Positions 1 through 19,180 of a stretch of DNA of 24,000 nucleotides are shown here, one piece after another. The notes below the pieces were generated by a model. It saw nothing but the letters and a program-made list of their open reading frames with translations, ran no database searches and was not told the origin of the DNA. The stretch is taken from assembly GCF_023612375.1 (NCBI RefSeq), contig NZ_CP076852.1, positions 517,475 through 541,474 of the forward strand, written 5' to 3'. How positions within the stretch are numbered: position 1 is the first letter of the stretch; each line of letters begins with the position of its first letter. The stretch comes from Mycoplasma sp. SG1 (GTDB taxonomy: Bacteria > Bacillota_I > Bacilli_A > Mycoplasmatales > SG1). Made by a program: the position numbers and the translations under genes.

Positions 1-3000
1 TTTTTATAAAAATCAATAAAAATATTATTAAAATTAAAATATAGATTATTAATAAATTGGGATAATTTTAAGGAAATAGGATCTATCTCGCTATACAATA
101 AAATAAAAAAAATGATTTCAATATCTTTTTCAAAAATTAATTGAAATGTATCCAAAATCTTAGAACAATGTTCTCTTCTTTCATCATCTTTTACATCATT
201 CTTTATGAGTAAACTCAATAGTATATTTTTTAGTTCTATAGATTTAAAGTAATAAATTATTAATGACACGTTCTGAGATGATTTTATTTGAAATAGGCTA
301 TCTTTTAACTTATGCTCATTTATCACGGAAATTAAACTTTTAAAATTAAAAGGAGAAAGTTCGTTGTTTTTTAAAAAATTATTTAAAAATAATATTTTTT
401 GTTTTGGACTATAATTTAAAAATTCTTCTTCTGTTGTGTTTATTACCATATAGTCTGTTAAATTATGGACAGATGAATCTGAATCAATTGTTGAAGCCCG
501 CGGATACACCGCCTCTAGTCCTTGATTAAACTCTTTTTCCGCGACATCATTTAAAATGTTATTGAACGGTTCGTAGGAATAAGAAACTTTTTTACTGTTT
601 ACTGATTGAAATATTTCTAAATAATTTTTGATTAGATATTTACGTTCATTTACATATTGCTGATTATGTATGTATATATATTTGATAGCTTCTTCAAAAC
701 TATACCAACTTAAATAAGTTGCTAATAAATAAATAAATTTTTTTGAAAAATAATAATATTCAAGTATTTTATTTGAAGATTTTTGATTGATTTTCTTAAT
801 TTGTTTTATTAATTTATCAAATAAATGTTGAAAAGTTTTAAAATTATTTTCTTTTTTTAAATCAATGGCAAAAATAATGAATATAAAATAATAACTAAAA
901 GAAAAATCTGACTGTTGAACAGGAAATTGATTCAATATAGAATCCTTTATTTCTTTTGTTATTTGATTTTCAACTTGTAAAAAATAAAAATAAATTTTAT
1001 AAATTAGAATATTGTTTCATCAATCGTTTAAATTGATAGTATTGTATTTAATAAATAGTTTGTCTATTCCTCCAAATCCAATCTTTTCAATGACTTTATT
1101 AATTTCTAAAAAATCATCAAAACTAATATATTTATTAATGTCTATATCTAGTTTAGTTGTGATAGAATAATTTAATTTACTTTTGTTAATAAATATATCA
1201 ACTTTTGTTATATTAAATTCTAATTTACCGCAATGAATATTTAAAATATTTATTGGTAATAAATAATAATTATCTAATTGTCATTTTGTATCATACTCTA
1301 TTAATAATCTGGTTAAAATCTGATAATATATTTTCTTAATGTCAATATTCTTCGTTTTAAAATTACGTAATCTATACAGTATAAACAAAAATGTTTCGGT
1401 GTTATATTTATCTTCATCTTTTTCAGCTTGATAATTTTTTGAAACGATTTTTATGTCTTCAAATCATGATTTTTCCATTTGATTATTGTGTTTTCGAAAA
1501 TAATAATCAAAAAATAATCTAAAATTTATATTCCCGCTTACAGTTAATATATTGGTACAATGATACATTTTTTTTAAGTTGTCCAAAAGTTTTTTACTTT
1601 TACTATTAATAACATAATTAAGAATATCAATAAATGATTTACTATTGCTAACAAAATTACGAATTTCAGAATTATCTAACTTATTATTAATAACAAATTT
1701 TCAAAATTTTTTCATAAATTTATAACACTCATTGTTAAAAAAATCTTTATTAATGATTTTTAATAAAGATTTTTTTTCATTAAATAGTGAAATAATAAAA
1801 ATGATCTCTTTCTTATTTAATTTATGAAAAAAATTTTTAGATTGGTTGCTTGATTTAGAAATTAAATTATTAAAGTATTTTTCGGTATTAAATAAGTTTT
1901 TATTATCTTTTTTATTTTTTAGAAAGATATATTCCGAAAATTTAATAGAATTAATATCATTTATCAAGCTACATTGTTCGCATAGATAGTTTATTAAAGA
2001 AAAAAATATTCATATATTTTTTTGTTTTGAAATTATTTTAGGTGTATCTTTGAATACGTTTAATTTAAGAAATTTAAAATTTTTCCGAGCTTTTGAAAGC
2101 GGTGGCAATTTCAATTCATCAACTTCTAAAGTGTTTGTTTTCGTGCATTTATTAATGTTGTCCCATAAAACATAAAATAATGTTTTTTCTTGATTTGAAA
2201 TATTTTGTGCTTGAAGAAAACCCGTTATCTCAGATAAAAGAAAATTATCATTAAAACTACACCCGATGAATAAAAATATATATTCTTTTTTAATACATTT
2301 TTTTATAAAATTAACGAAATTTTTTGAGAAGGACTTATCTGTTTTTCATTTTTCAGTTAACCGTCGATTGGTATCAATTATATGACTATCATCGTTAACT
2401 ATAGTCCCATGAATAGGAACTATAATTTTTTCATTATTTGTACGAGGTATTTTTATATTTTCTATATTTTCTTCGTATTTTCAAGCTAGTCTTAATTCTT
2501 TTCCATTATCATAATTAAATATATCATCATAATTAATAGTTAAAATGGTATTAAAATGTTGATTTATTAATGGTAATATATTTAAACTAATTCCGCTTTT
2601 AACATAATCTTTATTATCATTTATATGTGAAACTAGCGATAATTCTTTTTTATAAAGTTGATTTAATCATACTCTTTCTTTCTCATCGGTACATTCCAAT
2701 ATTATATCTAAAATCTGCGAAATTGGTTGTTGAAGACAATCTTGGTTTAACGCATCTAAGATATTTTGTAATTTTTTTTTATCTTGAGATGTTGTTCCGT
2801 TATATAATCTGTCCTTAGTAATTATTATTAATAAGTTTTTTAAATTTGGTAAGCCAAAATTAGAAGAAAACCCAGCGCCCAAAAATAAAATAACTTTGTT
2901 TTCTACTATTTTTTTACTAATTAATTTCAAGTCGACAAAATATTTTGAATTTTTAATCGTTTTTTTTATTTTAGAATGATCTTTGTTGAATATCTCTGGA

Positions 3001-3005
3001 AGCAT
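1..3005 (-). CDS. Giant SIR2-family (SIR2_2-like, NADase-type) protein with a long helical C-terminal region. DSR2-like architecture. 3' end lies beyond the window start (>=1001 codons visible).
   Basis: ATG at 3005..3003 is preceded by an in-frame TAA (3014..3012). I translated the frame codon by codon from 3005 to position 3. There is no TAA/TAG, only TGA (plus-strand tca at 2667, 2481, 2346, 2010, 1701, 1464, 1281, 1020, 1017). Track ORFs 2667..3005 and 1701..1967 are in this same frame. SIR2 motifs: LFLGAGFS (G43-A44-G45), ILTINYDD (N158/D160, nt 2526..2540), VPIHGT (H199, nt 2409..2411), FLFIGCSFND (aa 245-253). The remaining ~740 aa are K/N/I/L/F-rich, with no Walker A and no other motif I recognise. 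Confidence 0.85.
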
Positions 3006-3651: not shown

Positions 3652-4506
3652 TTAAATTTTATATTTACCTTCTGCTTTAGTAAAACCAAAAGCATAAGGA
3701 TCTAAACCGTGTCTTTCGTTTTTATCTAAACTCTTAATTAATTGCATATCTCCATCACTAATAATAAAGTTATCTAAATCTTGATTTTCAAAAATTCTAT
3801 TTTCATGAACTGATTTAGGAATAATTATGATTCCCCTTTGATATGCTCAACGCAGTGCTAATTGAAAAGGTGTAACATTATATTTTTGAGCTAATTTTTT
3901 AATTTCTGCTACTTCTCCAATTTTTCCTTTCATGATAGTTTGTCATGAAGTAATTTTAATATTTTGACTTTTAGCAAATTGAACTAAATCATCTAATTGT
4001 AAGTGCGGATGTAACTCTACTTGATCAACCGCTGGTATAACTTCTACTTGTTGAATAAAATCTTGAAGTTGATCTTTCATAAAATTAGATACCCCAATCG
4101 CTTTAATGATACCTTTTTTATACAATTTTTCTAAACCTTTATAAACATTTACTGAACTAGGAGTTGGTCAATGAATTAAACATAAATCTAAATAATCGGT
4201 TTCAAGTTCTTTTAAAATTCTTTCAACAGCTTGAACTACTTCTGCGTCAGTTTCAATGTTACGTCAAATTTTTGAAGTTATAAAAATATCTTTTCGATCT
4301 ATTCCAGATTCTTGAATTGCTTTTGCTACAATATGATGATTTTTATAAAAATCTGCAGTATCAATTAATCTATAACCTATTTTTAAAGCGTATTTAATGG
4401 CATTAACTCCAATAATAGGATCTTCGATCATGTAACTTCCAAATCCTAAAGCAGGTATTTGTACCCCATTATTTAATGTTAATTTTTGATCTAATATTTT
4501 TTTCAT
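3652..4506 (-). CDS. Aldo/keto reductase family oxidoreductase (2,5-diketo-D-gluconate reductase-like)
   Basis: ATG at 4506, TAA at 3654..3652, 284 aa. Fragments 4264..4506 and 3943..4125 are in one frame joined by TGA codons. LIDTADFYKNH and ITSKIW supply the AKR Asp/Tyr/Lys residues. VSNF and the LQLD..VQFAKSQNI region are typical of the family. Confidence 0.85.
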
Positions 4507-4647
4507 ATCAATAACTTTTACATGGATTAGAGTTTTAACAAACCCTATTCATTTATATTATGTTTTTTAATTTTTTATATTTTATTAAAAAAATCATTCT
4601 TAATTAGATTAAAACAAATGAATTAACAAAATTAAAATTATCATTTT

Positions 4648-4706
4648 TTATTATTAAGATACATTTTAATAAAGCTAAGAATACGCCTTACTAATCTTAA
4701 TAATAA
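4648..4706. repeat. 13-bp perfect inverted repeat (ttattattaagat / atcttaataataa) with a 33-nt loop, in the intergenic region
   Basis: 4648..4660 is the exact reverse complement of 4694..4706. The loop contains an inner taag/ctta pairing. No flanking T-run on either strand. Confidence 0.6.
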
Positions 4707-4855
4707 TGTGATGGGAACGAAATTGTTCTTCATTTTTTGTTAATAATCATGATCTTAAAAAGATTGATCTATTTTTTATATATTATATAGATAATTAATT
4801 GATTAAAAATAGACTATGACTTTTAAATACTTAAAAGATAAAAAGATAGTATGCT

Positions 4856-4965
4856 AATTTAATGAATTAATAAAATCGGTAAAATGTTTTGGAAAAATTC
4901 TAATTTTTAAAATGTTTTGGAAAAATTCTAATTTTTAATATATTGTTATCTGACAACTAATTCAA
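4856..4965 (-). pseudogene. Decayed duplicate of the 3' end of rluD, retaining a terminal stop codon
   Basis: 4861..4895 matches 6632..6666 at 33/35 nt (offset 1771 bp). On the minus strand it reads LKIRIFPKHFTDFINSLN-TAG. The live gene reads LKTEFPKYFTDFINSLDLID and continues. Weaker, indel-containing similarity extends to about 4965 (gttatctgacaactaatt vs gttatcggatgaataaatt). Confidence 0.75.
4881..4936. repeat. Perfect 28-bp tandem duplication (2 copies) inside the rluD 3'-end relic
   Basis: aaaatgttttggaaaaattctaattttt at 4881..4908 is repeated exactly at 4909..4936. Confidence 0.95.
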
Positions 4966-4992
4966 TTTATTAAAATTTTACATTATTTTAAA

Positions 4993-7614
4993 TTAAAAGT
5001 TAAAAGAAGTTGGTAATTTTAAAATTGTTATATAGTTATAAAATCGGGGCAAATAAGTAATCATTCATCATAAAAAATTTTTAAAATATCTTAATTTTAT
5101 GTCATCTAAAATATCATTTAATGAAAGCGTGTTTTCTTTAGCACCTTTCTTGAAATGGAAATGAAAAAAAATATTTTTTGGTTTATAAAAATCTTTTAAA
5201 TTTTTATCTGAACATATATTTTTATCCATTTCAGAAAATCTATTTCTTATATGATCGTTTAGTATCTCTTTAAAAGAAATATCTAAATCATTAATATATA
5301 GTGTTGGAAAATTACAAATAAGGAAAAATTCTTTATCATTAGTTTTTAAATGTTTAAATGCCGCAAACTCATTAATCTTTTTTTCATAATCAATAAACTT
5401 TTTTAGTTTTTTAATAATTAATTCCTCAAAATTTAAGGACTGTAATAAAAATCAAATAGATCAGCTGGATCAACTGTTAATTTCATTACTTGTTCAAATT
5501 TTATTAATATTGTTCAAATATTCAAAAATAAAATCATCACTATGTTTATCCATGTCAAGTCTATCTGAGGCTTTGTTAAGGTTTTTAAGTTTTTTTAAAA
5601 TTTTTTTATATTGGGTTTTTTCTTTTTTATTAATTAAAAAAATAATTCCTTTGTTGTCATCAATATTTTGCGAGCTATAATCTTTCATCCATGGTTCAAG
5701 TAAATCTATTGATAATGAACATTTATTATTAAATTTAAATTTTTCTTTAAATTTTTCTAATGTATCAGAATTAATTTTACATCCTAATATAATTATTAAA
5801 TTTTTTGTTGTTTTTTTTAATTTTGTTAAAAACGCATGAGTTTCGTCTAATTGGTTAAAAATAAGCAGATAATCTAAAGAAACAATTTCAAACCCTAAAA
5901 TTCTTTTGTCGTTTGTTAAAATAAAATCTGGGGATTCGGATTTATAAATTCTATATTGATTAATATTTGATAATAAATGTTTGTTTGTTTTTAAAAAAGA
6001 ATACATTGGAATAAATTCATTGTTTATTGCTTTAACATAAGCTGAAACAGAATTATCATTAAACAATTTAAAACCTGATAATCCATTTATAGAATCTTCT
6101 AAAGGAAAAACAAATTCATCAAAAAAATTCTTTAAAAAGTCTTTATTAATTGATTCTTCATTTAACTTATTTAATAATTCATTACTTAATAACGGCTTGC
6201 AAATAAAATGCTTACCCTGTATATTAAAGTTTGGAGTAGTATAATATCGTGAAAATTTTATATCTTTTAAATAAGGATAAATTTTTTCAAAATCAAAAAT
6301 ATTTAAAGAATTAAAATATTTAATTTCATTGGAATTTAAATTTGATTTATCAAAAATTAAATAATATTTTTGATTTTTTATATCTTTAATTATTATTTTA
6401 ATGTTACACAATATATTTTTTACTTCTAAAAAGTATTCTTTATTGCTGATTAAACATAAAAAAGTGTTTAAAAGATTTAAAGGTTCATCTAAATCAAAAG
6501 ATTTATTACATACTTCGTTTTGGTATAAAATGGATGTATCGATTTGTTTTAAAAATCCTTTAAAAACAAAAATTTCTTTTCCTAGTTTAATATTAATTTG
6601 TTTTATTAGTTTATTTAAATCTATTAAATCTAATGAATTAATAAAATCAGTAAAATATTTTGGAAACTCAGTTTTTAATTCAAATGGTTTATTAGTTATC
6701 GGATGAATAAATTTTAAATAATAGGCGTGTAAAAATTGGCTATGATAATTTTCATCTCTTATTAATAAAATTTCATTTTTTATAAATAAAATGTTTTGTT
6801 TAAAAAATGGATTATAAACTTTATCAGCAAAAACAGGACAATTAATTGCTTTTAAATGAACCCTTATCTGATGAGTAGATCCTGTTTTTATTTCAGCTTC
6901 AACTAAAACCAAAGAATATGGTAAATCTTTAATCTTTTTAAAATAAGTAATTGATTGTTTACCTGTTTCAGCAACTATTTTTTTAGCAAAATTTCTTTTA
7001 TCATTGCTAATCGGCAAATTAACTTCAAGCGTGGAATTTTTAATTTTACCTTGACAAATTACATAATATTTTTTTTGAATTTGATGAGTTTTAAAATATT
7101 CAAAAAACTTTTCTGCAGCAGAATTGGTTTTTACAATAATCAATAACCCTGTTGTATCTTTATCAAGGCGATGAACTATTCCATCGCGATTTTGACCACA
7201 AATTTCAGCTAATGGTTTTTTTAAATAATAGAAAAAATAATTGTAAACCGTTTTAAGGGTCTTTAAATTAGGATCATAAACAATAATATCCTTTGGTTTA
7301 TCGATGATCAAAAAACTTTCATCTTCAAAAAGAATTTTAATTTCAAAGTTAGAAAAAATCTCATCCCAATTAATTTCTTTAGAATGATCAGGAATTAATT
7401 GATCATCTATCGTTCAATCTATCTTAATCGAATCATTTAAATTAACCAAAAAACTTGGAGTATTTTTTTGATTTTCATTTACCAAAACCCCATATGTTTT
7501 TATTCATTTAACAATTTGTGTTCTTGAATAATTTTTTAAAGTATTAAAGATTAACAAATCTAATCTAATTGATTTTTGATCTTCGTTTATAAAAGTTTTA
7601 TTAATCTGAATCAT
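4993..7614 (-). CDS. rluD: RluD/RluA-family 23S rRNA pseudouridine synthase (S4 + PUS domains, aa 1 to ~328) fused in frame to a ~545-aa extension of unknown function. 873 aa under code 4.
   Basis: ATG at 7614 with an upstream in-frame TAA. N-terminus reads IRLDLLIFNTLKNYSRTQIVKWIKTYGVLVN (S4-like). HRLDKDTTGLLIIVKT carries the catalytic Asp at nt 7162..7164. Also KTGSTHQIRVHL and LHAYYLKFIHPITNKPFEL. The frame stays open past the standard-code stop at 5494 (TGA) down to TAA at 4995..4993, with no TAA/TAG over 873 codons. Confidence 0.85.
6627..6666. repeat. Gene-internal copy of the direct repeat (partner of 4856..4895)
   Basis: Encodes FPKYFTDFINSL, the last conserved residues of the RluD domain. 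33/35 identity to 4861..4895. Confidence 0.8.
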
Positions 7615-15830: not shown

Positions 15831-17444
15831 TTATTCTTTTAATATTTCAACATCATTATTTTTTTCAATTTTGGCAATTGATGGTATTTCTTGTTCATCT
15901 TCATGATTATAATCATCGTTGTGAAAATGTTTAATTTTTCTTGAATGTTTTAACAATTTTTCCATCGTTAAATTTCGAACATTAAAATAAAAGTCAATCA
16001 TTACTACCAAAGCTAAAATAAAGTCAGTTGTTGGAAGGGAAAGAAAAATAAATAATTGATCTTTATCTCGAAAGATAAAGTAATAGATTAAAGAAACAGG
16101 TACATATAAAATAATAAAACGAAGAAAAGTAATAAAAATAGCTTTTTTGTAACGAAGGGTTGATTGATAATAAGAAATTGGAATAAAACTACATGAAATT
16201 AATGGGAAAAAAATAAAGGTATATCTTAATGCCTTCGTTGCATAATTAAAGACTACATCATTAGGATCAACAAAAATAGTTACTAAATAAGGAGCGAGTG
16301 CTAAAACCAAAATTTCAACAACAATTAAATAAACAAACATCATCGCAAACGAGATTGAAATTGATTTTTTAATTCTATCAAGATATTTTCTAGCTAAATT
16401 ATGTGATGTAAACATATTCATTCCTTGCAAGAATCCGAAAATAGAAATGGTGAAGAAAGTTAAAAATGGAGTTACAGCCCCAAAAATCGAAACAAGACTA
16501 TGATCAGGGAGTTTCGATCCCGCAATATTTTGCGACATATGCGATAAAATAATGTTAAAAATATAATACGCTACCCCTTGTAAAGAATTTCTAAACAATG
16601 ATGGAAGCCCAAAAATAATCAAAGTAATAATAATACTTTTTGAAATTTTTCAATGTCTGAAATTTATAGCATCGAAAAAAACTCATAAATCTTTTACAAT
16701 CGCACAATAAATTAAGGAAATAAAAAATTGCACAACTCAACATATTGCAGTCGCTATGATTGTTCCTAAAACCCCAGAATGAAAGACTTTTACAAATAAG
16801 ACATCTAAACCGATGTTCAGCAATGAACAGATTAAAGTTATAGACATAGAAACCATCATAAAACCTTTTGTTCTGATAGTTCAAATGATGATATTAGAAA
16901 CATAATAGAAAAAAATGCCAAATGTTCAAGTTCAACAAATTCATTTCGAAATACTTGCAAGTTCTAAATCTTTCGGATCAGATCCATTAATTTGTAATTG
17001 AATAAAAATCTTACTAAAGGATAAAGCAAAAATTAAGAAAAAGATAATAATAATTAAATTGATGAATAAACTATTACCCAAAGTTGAAACAGCATTTTTA
17101 CGATCTTTTCTACCAAAATGAAATGATAATGAATTAGAAAGACCCCCCGATGAAATAGCCAATCCTGCTACAATTAATGTATAGTATGGAAGACAAACTT
17201 GAATAATTGTTCGAATATCAGAAGAAGTTAAATCAAATCCATAACCACCTGCACCTCATTGTTTTCCAGGACCCAATTTAATAGCAATTATCTGATCAAT
17301 AATGGTATACAAACTGTATATCGCCATTGAAATAGATGCTGGGATAACTATTTTCAGAAGAGAAACTAAAACGGATTTATGAAAAAAAATATCTTCTGAG
17401 TTAGTTTTTTTTCTATATTTTAATTTATTTAAGCATTTAAACAT
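15831..17444 (-). CDS. MATE/MOP-superfamily (MatE-like) polytopic membrane transporter, copy 1
   Basis: Fragments 17256..17444, 16941..17162 and 15831..16622 are in one frame. I scanned the gaps and they hold only TGA. 537 aa, multi-TM. The N-terminus LLKIVIPASISMAIYSLYTIIDQIIAIKLG resembles the MATE N-terminal signature. Hydrophilic acidic C-terminal tail. Confidence 0.7.
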
Positions 17445-17659: not shown

Positions 17660-19180
17660 TTAGTTTTCAATATCATCGTTTGGATGATGAAAAATAATAG
17701 ATTTTGTAACATTAACACTATCACTGATATTAATTTTATCAAAGATATTCATAAGTTTGTTAACTTGAAATTGACTAACATCAAAATAAAAAGGAACGAT
17801 ATAACAAAGAATAAAAATTAAATCACAGATTGATAATGATAAGAAAATAAATTTTAAAGACATAGATCCTGTAAATTGATTAACAACAAGTAAAAAAATT
17901 AACGAAATAACTAAAAAAATCATACAACGAACCGTGATTGTTCAAATTGATTTTATATAAAGAAAAATTGATTCATAGAATGAACTTATCAAGATCGTAA
18001 GACCAAACAACGGTAGTAAACAAAAAGAATAAATCAAAATACTTTGTGCATCATGTAAAGATTGATGATAATTACTTAAATTTGTATCTAAATAAATTGA
18101 TACAAAAAAATCAGAAAATCCAAGTAAAAAGGCTTCTATGATTAACGCTGAAATGATAATAAAAACGATTGATAACTTAGCAGCGTCCCTTACTCTTTTG
18201 CTTTTATTTCTGCCAATGTTTTGAATAATAAAAATATTAACCCCTTGCACAAAACCTGAAATATATCCCATGATCACAAACATGTAGGAAGAAACAATAC
18301 TAAATAAACTAATTCAATAAAGATTGGTATAAACGACAGTATGAGATATTGCTAAAATAATGTTGAAAAAAAATAAACAAGCCCCTAATCAAACATTTCT
18401 AATCAGCGATGAAATACCATATAAAAATGAATTTCATGACAGATTGTGATCTATTTTTAAATTATTGTTTAAAAAAGAACGACTTATATCATTTGTTTTA
18501 AGAAAGAAAAGAACTAAAATTGTTAAATAAAATTGAAAAATAATAGCAATCGCTGTTGCTATAGCTGTTCCAAAAAGGCCATACTTATAAACAATTAAAA
18601 AAACCAAATCTAAAGCTATGTTAATTGCAAAAGATACTGCTGGAACAAGTGAAGTTAAAATATTTCAGCCCCTAATTTTTAAAACAACTAAAAAAATATT
18701 GCTAAAAAACTGCAGAAAAGAAGTAATCGCTAAAAGTCATGCCATATATTTAGCAAGACCCAAAAGGACGGGATTAGTCAACCCTTGCATCTTTAAAAAA
18801 ATATTCATAAAACTGAAACTGAAAATAACATACCCAACCCAAATCATAAAATGGACCGTTATGCTATTACCAAGGTTTTTATAAGCTTTGCTTTTTTCGC
18901 CTTTTGATAAAGAAAGACCAAAACTGTTAGATAACGAAGTTGCTCCAGCGAATAAAATTGAAGTAATAAATAAATACAATGGGGTTAAAACTTGAATAAT
19001 ACCCCTTATTTCTTCTCCTGATAAGTTATAACCACTAATAATCAGTTGATGCTTACCGGTTCCGAATTTAATCGCTAAAATTTCATCAATAATCCCAAAT
19101 GCAGCAGCTAAAAAAGCAGATAATGCTGTGGGAAGAGAAACTCTTATTATTGATGATGCTACAGATTTTGTATGATACAC
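17660..19180 (-). CDS. MATE/MOP-superfamily polytopic membrane transporter, copy 2 (paralogue of copy 1). Start codon uncertain.
   Basis: Fragments 18737..19180, 17942..18283 and 17660..17923 share a frame; the 18284..18736 gap was scanned and is free of TAA/TAG. N-terminus SIIRVSLPTALSAFLAAAFGIIDEILAIKFG parallels copy 1. There is no in-frame ATG between the pheT stop (19237) and this region. The nearest start is GTG at 19180; ATT/ATA codons lie further upstream. Confidence 0.65.

Follow-up and report, generated by a model that had tools for sequence, protein, structure and literature searches.

In Escherichia coli, prophage e14 and phage 21 integrate into the 3' end of icd and leave the displaced fragment icdC behind, and in staphylococci SCCmec integrates at the 3' end of rlmH (orfX). 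Displacement of C-terminal parts is also known from polymorphic toxin loci, which harbor the 'orphan' ends of Rhs and CdiA proteins. Here, we describe a locus in a 24-kb stretch of the 622,852-bp genome of Mycoplasma sp. SG1 (contig NZ_CP076852.1, positions 517,475 to 541,474; hereafter the window, to which all coordinates refer). At this locus, a gene for an RluA/RluD-type pseudouridine synthase (here rluD) runs on in frame into a long open reading frame (ORF), while a second copy of the gene's end, together with a stop codon, is located further downstream. The copy at the end of the enzyme part is designated R1, the downstream copy R2. The best-supported reading, and probably the correct one, is that the locus bears the footprint of an insertion at the 3' end of rluD, which occurred via recombination involving a second copy of the gene end. 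The general kind of event, an insertion that displaces the 3' end of a gene, is already known; the twist at this locus is that the insert supplies neither a stop codon nor a recombinase but an in-frame orphan ORF.

The arrangement resembles that of e14 and phage 21 at icd in that the insertion would lie in the last part of a housekeeping gene, with the original 3' end left as a non-functional direct repeat beyond the insert. Direct repeats derived from the 3' end of the target do flank the SG1 insert (R1 and R2, 37 of 40 nucleotides (nt) identical). However, e14 and phage 21 encode an integrase and provide a new 3' end including a stop codon, so that a protein of normal length is made. The SG1 insert, in contrast, has a size of ~1.7 kb and lacks an integrase; family scans revealed no tyrosine or serine recombinase within it, and the neighboring genes encode IleS and an aldo/keto reductase. 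It also supplies no replacement end: no stop follows R1, and read-through leads into an orphan ORF of 544 further open codons. SCCmec is similar in that it targets the 3' end of a gene for 23S rRNA modification, is bordered by short direct repeats and leaves the body of the enzyme intact. The SCC elements, however, carry ccr serine recombinases, have repeats of about 15-20 bp and do not extend the protein, and none of this was found at the SG1 locus. In the case of the Rhs/CdiA orphan ends, a new C-terminal module is likewise joined in frame via a short homology, and the previous end is located downstream together with a piece of the core. In contrast, RluD is a cytoplasmic enzyme and not a toxin carrier, the displaced 'module' would consist of one codon plus the stop, and neither an immunity gene nor an Rhs or CdiA core is present.

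The core of the repeat comprises 40 nt (4856-4895 and 6627-6666) in direct orientation at a spacing of 1771 nt. A preliminary description of this stretch of DNA had reported a 35-mer with 33 identical positions at the same distance, which was recovered by our repeat search and local alignment and extended to the core given here. R1 (6627..6666, minus strand) consists of codons 317-329 (FPKYFTDFINSLD) plus 1 nt and is, as had been noted before, the end of the RluD domain within an 873-codon ORF that is read through in frame. R2 (4854..4895, minus strand) consists of 13 codons, FPKHFTDFINSLN, followed by TAG (4856..4854), and is located in an intergenic spacer of 486 nt, in line with its earlier description as the ancestral end. 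A perfect tandem duplication of 2 x 28 bp (100% identity), which had also been recognized previously, was located at 4880..4935 (4880-4907 and 4908-4935) by the repeat search and spans the 5' part of R2, in gene sense, and 12 nt upstream of R2. When two small indels are permitted, ~13 more nt can be aligned, so that the repeat possibly extends to 6679 for R1 (6627-6679) and to 4910 for R2 (4856-4910); the longest exact run common to both copies, as read from the alignment, is about 21 nt. The indel-ridden similarity proposed to continue for ~70 more nt did not hold up beyond these ~13 nt: upstream of the stretched alignment, the similarity is no better than that of shuffled sequence (0.21 of the shuffles reach the score with the tandem copy included, 0.43 without it), and downstream of R1 and R2 there is equally no similarity beyond that of shuffled sequence (0.41 of the shuffles reach the score).

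With 24% GC and many short AT-rich pseudo-repeats in the same region, a chance match, or a low-complexity or dispersed repeat that is common in an AT-rich genome, has to be considered. We regard this explanation as extremely improbable. The local alignment of R1 and R2 scores 67, compared to 25.2 on average and 46 at most for pairs of random 300-nt segments drawn from the window. At up to 3 mismatches, a 36-mer of the repeat occurs at two sites only within the 24 kb and did not give even one match in 100 shuffles, which settles for the window the concern, raised earlier, that the match might be a common dispersed repeat. In addition, the copy is in frame and reproduces the C-terminus of the family along with its stop.

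The ORF that runs through R1 (4993..7614, minus strand) encodes 873 amino acids (aa). ORF scan and translation were performed using the Mycoplasma code (table 4), as the window, at 24.3% GC, gives a sensible reading only with TGA as Trp. By exact protein look-up, four proteins of the window are assigned to Mycoplasma sp. SG1 (taxid 2810348), and the product of this ORF is identical to WP_250328587.1, an 'RluA family pseudouridine synthase' of Mycoplasma sp. SG1. Residues 1-329 (6628..7614, minus strand) constitute the RluA/RluD-type part as judged by Pfam, TIGR00005 and alignment. They contain an S4 domain (PF01479, 25.2 bits at a cut-off of 22.8, residues 17-63) and the catalytic domain PseudoU_synth_2 (PF00849, 88.7 bits, residues 101-255), and no Pfam match is found beyond. 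The score for TIGR00005, 208.2 bits (E 1.6e-61), lies above the cut-off of 192.7, placing the protein in this family. The catalytic motif HRLDKDTTG is intact at residues 148-156. Across 14 aligned sequences 43 columns are invariant, including H148-G156, and H148, R149, L150, D151 (the catalytic Asp), K152, T154 and G156 are present in all 14. The highest-scoring named equivalog is that of RluD, NF008385, at 167.6 bits, which is below its cut-off of 351. Thus, the designation 'RluD-like' appears to be fair, but orthology to RluD is not certified by this score. Compared to canonical synthases of the RluD/RluA subfamily (TIGR00005, NF008385), the SG1 protein shares the S4 domain, the catalytic domain and the motifs, whereas it has 873 aa instead of about 300. 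It also differs by a lineage-specific insertion of ~14 residues (roughly ILFIKNEILLIRDE, residues ~275-288, ~6751-6792, minus strand) within the catalytic domain, which is absent from all 13 aligned homologues; this housekeeping gene thus also tolerates internal expansion.

TIGR00005 covers residues 12-328 at profile positions 2-297/298, so the profile is exhausted at residue 328. In the alignment, which includes 13 homologues, the segment ...ELPKYFKDVIDKL is placed opposite EFPKYFTDFINSL, and the homologues end at, or a few residues from, the equivalent of L328. Past the aligned segment, 11 of them continue for 0-3 residues and one for about nine, and one ends sooner. The earlier view of the 873-aa protein as a chimera is supported by this common end. 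The 120 best protein matches have lengths of 245-395 aa, the matches to 80 metagenomic RluD loci end at query residues 309-347, and no RluA-family protein among the protein and metagenomic matches listed carries such an extension. The best match is a gene of 302 aa which ends in ...LPNYFIDVIKTLT*, directly after lspA, on a contig of 26.8% GC that uses TGG for Trp. Equivalogs of RluD have ~300 aa and end just after ...P.YF..I..L; the 873-aa ORF does not, and only a virtual form terminated by R2 would fit both the canonical length and the canonical end. The stop of R2 is positioned exactly at the end-point of the family. In a tblastn comparison of the RluD part with the insert and spacer (4700-6630), R2 was the only match (residues 317-329, 84.6% identity, E 0.001). 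At one position, the Tyr that is common in homologues is present in R1, and R2 has His; this would fit drift in a dead copy, at one site only. In its sequence and in the position of its stop, R2 therefore corresponds to a canonical gene end; it has the appearance of an ancestral terminus that was displaced, so that the 873-aa form would represent the derived state.

The part of the ORF that follows R1, referred to as the extension, comprises codons 330-873 (544 codons; 4996..6627, minus strand; stop at 4993-4995). Its frame is free of stops, compared to 56 and 63 stops in the two other frames and about 46 after shuffling. The GC content is 19.2%, versus 23-35% in the housekeeping neighbors, and decreases from the first over the second to the third codon position (GC1 0.25 > GC2 0.19 > GC3 0.13). 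This composition resembles that of a SIR2-like gene further downstream (20.7% GC), and TGA accounts for 6 of the 7 Trp codons, as in neighboring genes. Because of the open frame, the order of GC at the three codon positions and the use of TGA, the extension can be read as coding sequence that was shaped in a table-4 organism. The stretch from residue 300 to residue 402 is devoid of ATG, GTG and TTG codons, and an ATG appears for the first time at residue 537. As the frame is open into the junction and no start codon is close to it, expression would have to come through rluD, and fusion to this gene is the only evident route to express the extension. Signals for promoters and terminators occur at the expectation from shuffled sequence, a single terminator-like site being located inside the ORF, and a promoter and terminator of the extension's own were rejected on these grounds. 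The possibility that the extension is a decayed second copy of rluD was rejected as well, as the tblastn comparison with the RluD part retrieved R2 only.

Searches with residues 329-873 did not reveal any relative of the extension. There was no homologue among 5.8 billion proteins in a word-seeded search and no match among 1.84 billion representatives in an exhaustive phmmer search; no family of Pfam, NCBIfam, PADLOC or PHROGs matched, and no match was obtained among PDB sequences at E up to 10, among phage and plasmid records by tblastn, or among the viral contigs of IMG/VR. The sequence contains no Walker A, CxxC or PD-(D/E)xK motif, no membrane segments (maximum Kyte-Doolittle score 1.17) and no internal repeats, and it has no paralogue within the window. 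A single-sequence AlphaFold2 model was unusable (mean predicted local distance difference test score, pLDDT, 33.7). The 873-aa protein also failed to find itself in the homologue searches because it is filed in a 90%-identity cluster represented by an unrelated metagenomic peptide of 52 aa, a database artefact.

The preservation of the frame suggests that the extension is maintained by selection, provided that R1 and R2 started out as identical copies. On this assumption R2 has since acquired 3 substitutions in 40 nt, indels and the 28-bp duplication. Under neutral change, a frame of 544 codons would stay open with a chance of 0.04-0.14 at 2.5% substitution and of 0.001-0.02 at 5%; as the frame would thus rarely remain open under a comparable degree of change, we infer that it has been kept by selection.

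At the site where the match between R1 and R2 ends (6615-6635, minus strand, codons ~327-333), inspection by eye revealed a 9-nt tandem repeat, TAGATTTAA TAGATTTAA, which reads ...L D L I D L N...; in the +1 frame there are TAG, TAA and TAG stops. This may be a trace of the original junction or of slippage.

Such a structure might also be generated by an error of assembly or consensus in a symbiont genome derived from mixed DNA, if sequences were mis-joined at the repeat or a false indel was introduced close to the junction. The organism may be uncultured, and indel errors of long reads cluster in homopolymers, in which the present sequence is rich. However, we consider an artefact to be very unlikely. 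The exact run shared by R1 and R2 is short for a mis-join in an assembly graph, and the sequence upstream of R2 is not rluD, which does not fit serially threaded haplotypes. A single indel error cannot produce the open codons after the junction, which is open in table 11 too (605-aa ORF, 5494..7311), and the annotation of the National Center for Biotechnology Information (NCBI) keeps one intact coding sequence.

Based on these data, the locus probably started from a normal rluD of about 329 codons, ending in ...FPK(Y/H)FTDFINSLN-stop. Recombination at the extreme 3' end, in which a second copy of the terminal ~40-55 nt of the gene took part, would have separated codon 329 from the former gene end by about 1.73 kb. 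This may have occurred by a Campbell-type single crossover with a circular molecule carrying a segment of the rluD end, or, equally possible, by a one-sided event in which a homologous join and an illegitimate join with donor DNA were combined. Either route would directly yield the arrangement R1-insert-R2. The insert would have brought a long ORF without a start of its own that continued the frame of rluD, and the cell would make, or at least encode, one protein of 873 residues with intact S4 and pseudouridine synthase domains and a C-terminal extension of 544 residues. The old end, R2, would have turned non-coding and since drifted (Tyr to His) and gained the 28-bp duplication by slippage. 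We prefer such a single insertion-type event because it accounts at once for the extension, for the lack of a stop after R1 and for the stranded terminus. The sequence alone cannot separate the two routes from each other, nor from a junction made by an integrase that was later lost.

Several other mechanisms were considered and rejected. A repeat of 40-55 nt is far too long for a transposon or insertion sequence, which duplicates 2-14 bp of its target; in addition, among the 25 longest inverted repeats listed, there is none whose arms lie at opposite ends of the insert, and no transposase domain was found within it in Pfam, PADLOC and PHROGs scans. A group II intron or another structured mobile RNA was dismissed as no Rfam family reached its gathering score in the window and no reverse transcriptase domain is present, and the scans of the window did not identify any tRNA or non-coding RNA that might serve as an attachment site. 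A tandem duplication of the locus was excluded, as the sequence after R2 is unrelated to that after R1 and R2 is the sole RluD remnant downstream. With tandem duplication, transposon and structured RNA ruled out, recombination with a second copy of the rluD end is therefore left. Hence, the earlier proposal of an insertion into the 3' end of rluD with a duplicated end stands as the best-supported reading, but its two further elements, a foreign origin of the insert and an attachment-site mechanism, were not established. With respect to the former, no donor or homologue was found anywhere searched, and the use of TGA for 6 of 7 Trp residues argues against a recent donor that uses table 11, and with it against other low-GC bacteria as a recent source.

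With respect to the latter, the locus might be the remnant of an integrase-driven island or prophage, in which the 3' end of rluD acted as attB, R1 and R2 represent attL and attR, and the integrase and most of the cargo were deleted, leaving one ORF in frame by chance. The topology is indeed that of islands at the 3' ends of genes, with a target-derived direct repeat of 40-55 nt, and the low GC content of the insert relative to its housekeeping neighbors would be in accordance with such an origin. Additional support might come from a candidate repeat in the AT-rich spacer (4507..4992, GC 0.16-0.20), which separates the end of the fusion ORF at 4993 from the start of the aldo/keto reductase gene at 4506, as defined by the ORF coordinates. 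Apart from R2 and the tandem duplication, the spacer holds a candidate third, much weaker copy of the R1 junction, R3 (4600..4638, minus strand), which reads ...FNFVNSFVLI*; no tRNA and no Rfam family was identified in the spacer. In local alignments with the last 140 nt of the gene, R3 was the best of 260 segments of the window (score 38; next best 32), and 0.008 of the shuffles reached this score. It is nearer to R1 than to R2, including the 'LI' of the extension. If real, R3, which lies 256 nt further on than R2, would hint at repeated events at the rluD end and could indicate that the site was used more than once. However, it is an unproven, statistically marginal candidate, as 0.07 of the shuffles reach the score when a 311-nt reference is used. 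Moreover, no integrase, excisionase or phage family matched the insert in Pfam, NCBIfam, PHROGs and PADLOC, which agrees with the earlier note that no integrase or transposase lies between the repeats, and the flanking genes are ileS and the aldo/keto reductase gene. Elements of this type normally restore the end and the stop of their target, which the SG1 insert does not, and an ORF that is open up to the junction without a start codon is unexpected for cargo adjacent to an att site. Thus, the previously noted likeness to genomic islands applies to the topology but not to the integrase or the restored stop, and an island or prophage remnant is, in our view, unlikely.

Alternatively, the long form of the protein might be old: the extension was gained by another route, and R2 is a later, unrelated copy of ~40-55 nt that arose by template switching or as a repair patch and came to lie ~100 nt beyond the stop. 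A stop soon after the homology is not rare in AT-rich DNA, as the density of out-of-frame stops is about 0.1 per codon. Likewise, the use of TGA for Trp and the host-like codon pattern of the extension fit a long residence, and the ~14-residue insertion in the catalytic domain indicates that expansions are tolerated. However, this scenario requires two events that are independent of each other, whereas a single insertion accounts for both features, and the copy would have to match exactly the terminal 13 codons of the family plus the canonical stop. Furthermore, none of the RluA-family proteins listed has such an extension, and the searches gave no homologue of it. We therefore consider a long-standing extended form to be rather improbable.

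Some points weigh against an insertion by recombination with a second copy of the gene end. Neither an empty site nor a second allele of the long form was found, and no relative above 36% identity to SG1 RluD was obtained from the protein, genome, metagenome and viral collections searched. A scan of genome contigs gave only an RluD from Bacteroidia at 29% identity, and the 80 loci from a profile-based metagenome scan were all at or below 36%, an earlier metagenome scan having been empty. As no closer relative was found, the direction and the age of the event, as we infer them, rest on parsimony. In addition, no donor, recombinase, terminal inverted repeats or other hallmark of a mobile element was found, and the count of two copies of the repeat refers to the 24-kb window of the 622,852-bp genome. 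Finally, the incoming copy of the gene end might already have been diverged, in which case the argument for selection would fall.

On the minus strand, the genes are ordered ileS, the 873-aa ORF, the aldo/keto reductase gene, lspA and a gene for a protein of >1001 aa with a SIR2_2 domain. In the contig of the best-matching homologue, lspA is located directly upstream of the short rluD and overlaps it; the neighborhood of rluD is thus rearranged, and in SG1 the reductase gene now lies between rluD and lspA. The ORF for the SIR2_2 protein (1-3005, minus strand), which runs off the start of the window, is the third gene downstream of the fusion, ~2 kb further on. Its N-terminal SIR2-like domain (Pfam SIR2_2, E 1.3e-11; PADLOC SIR2, E 1.6e-06) is followed by ~700 residues without domain assignment, its GC content is 20.7%, and it is a candidate anti-phage defense gene in a genome of 623 kb. 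Further away, two large membrane proteins encoded side by side (537 and 506 aa; 15831-17444 and 17660-19180, minus strand) look like a tandem pair; the first of the pair, which was covered by the scan, matches MatE (Pfam, E 7.8e-19). The name SG1 agrees with 'Scorpion Group 1', an isolated and deep phylotype of Mollicutes from the guts of scorpions, with a 16S sequence only 79% identical to that of a Spiroplasma (PMC6326461). This agreement is a lead only.

As a more speculative reading, which we regard as doubtful at best, the extension might be a functional 'C-terminal cassette' that lacks a start and relies on translational fusion to a constitutively expressed rRNA-modification enzyme, having been installed via ~40 nt of homology. 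This would be a housekeeping analogue of the displacement seen in polymorphic toxins. If so, R2, and perhaps R3, would be recombination substrates able to delete or swap the extension, and the orphan domain would be active on or close to the ribosome, perhaps as a module for defense or regulation. As it stands, the locus is a one-off example of a fusion by insertion; no new mechanism or system emerges from it, and its significance is limited at present. For annotation, it serves as a warning that a chimeric protein is listed as '873-aa RluA family pseudouridine synthase'. If the proposed insertion at the rluD 3' end is correct, the locus would be an unusually legible record of a housekeeping enzyme that gained a large domain in one step, as the incoming DNA lacks a start codon of its own, the reading frame passes through without a break and the former stop can still be seen close by. 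The locus also contributes a sequence of 545 residues that is without a detectable relative among about 1.8 billion representative proteins, and the extension may thus be regarded as a candidate lineage-specific innovation in a deep, poorly sampled branch of the Mollicutes.

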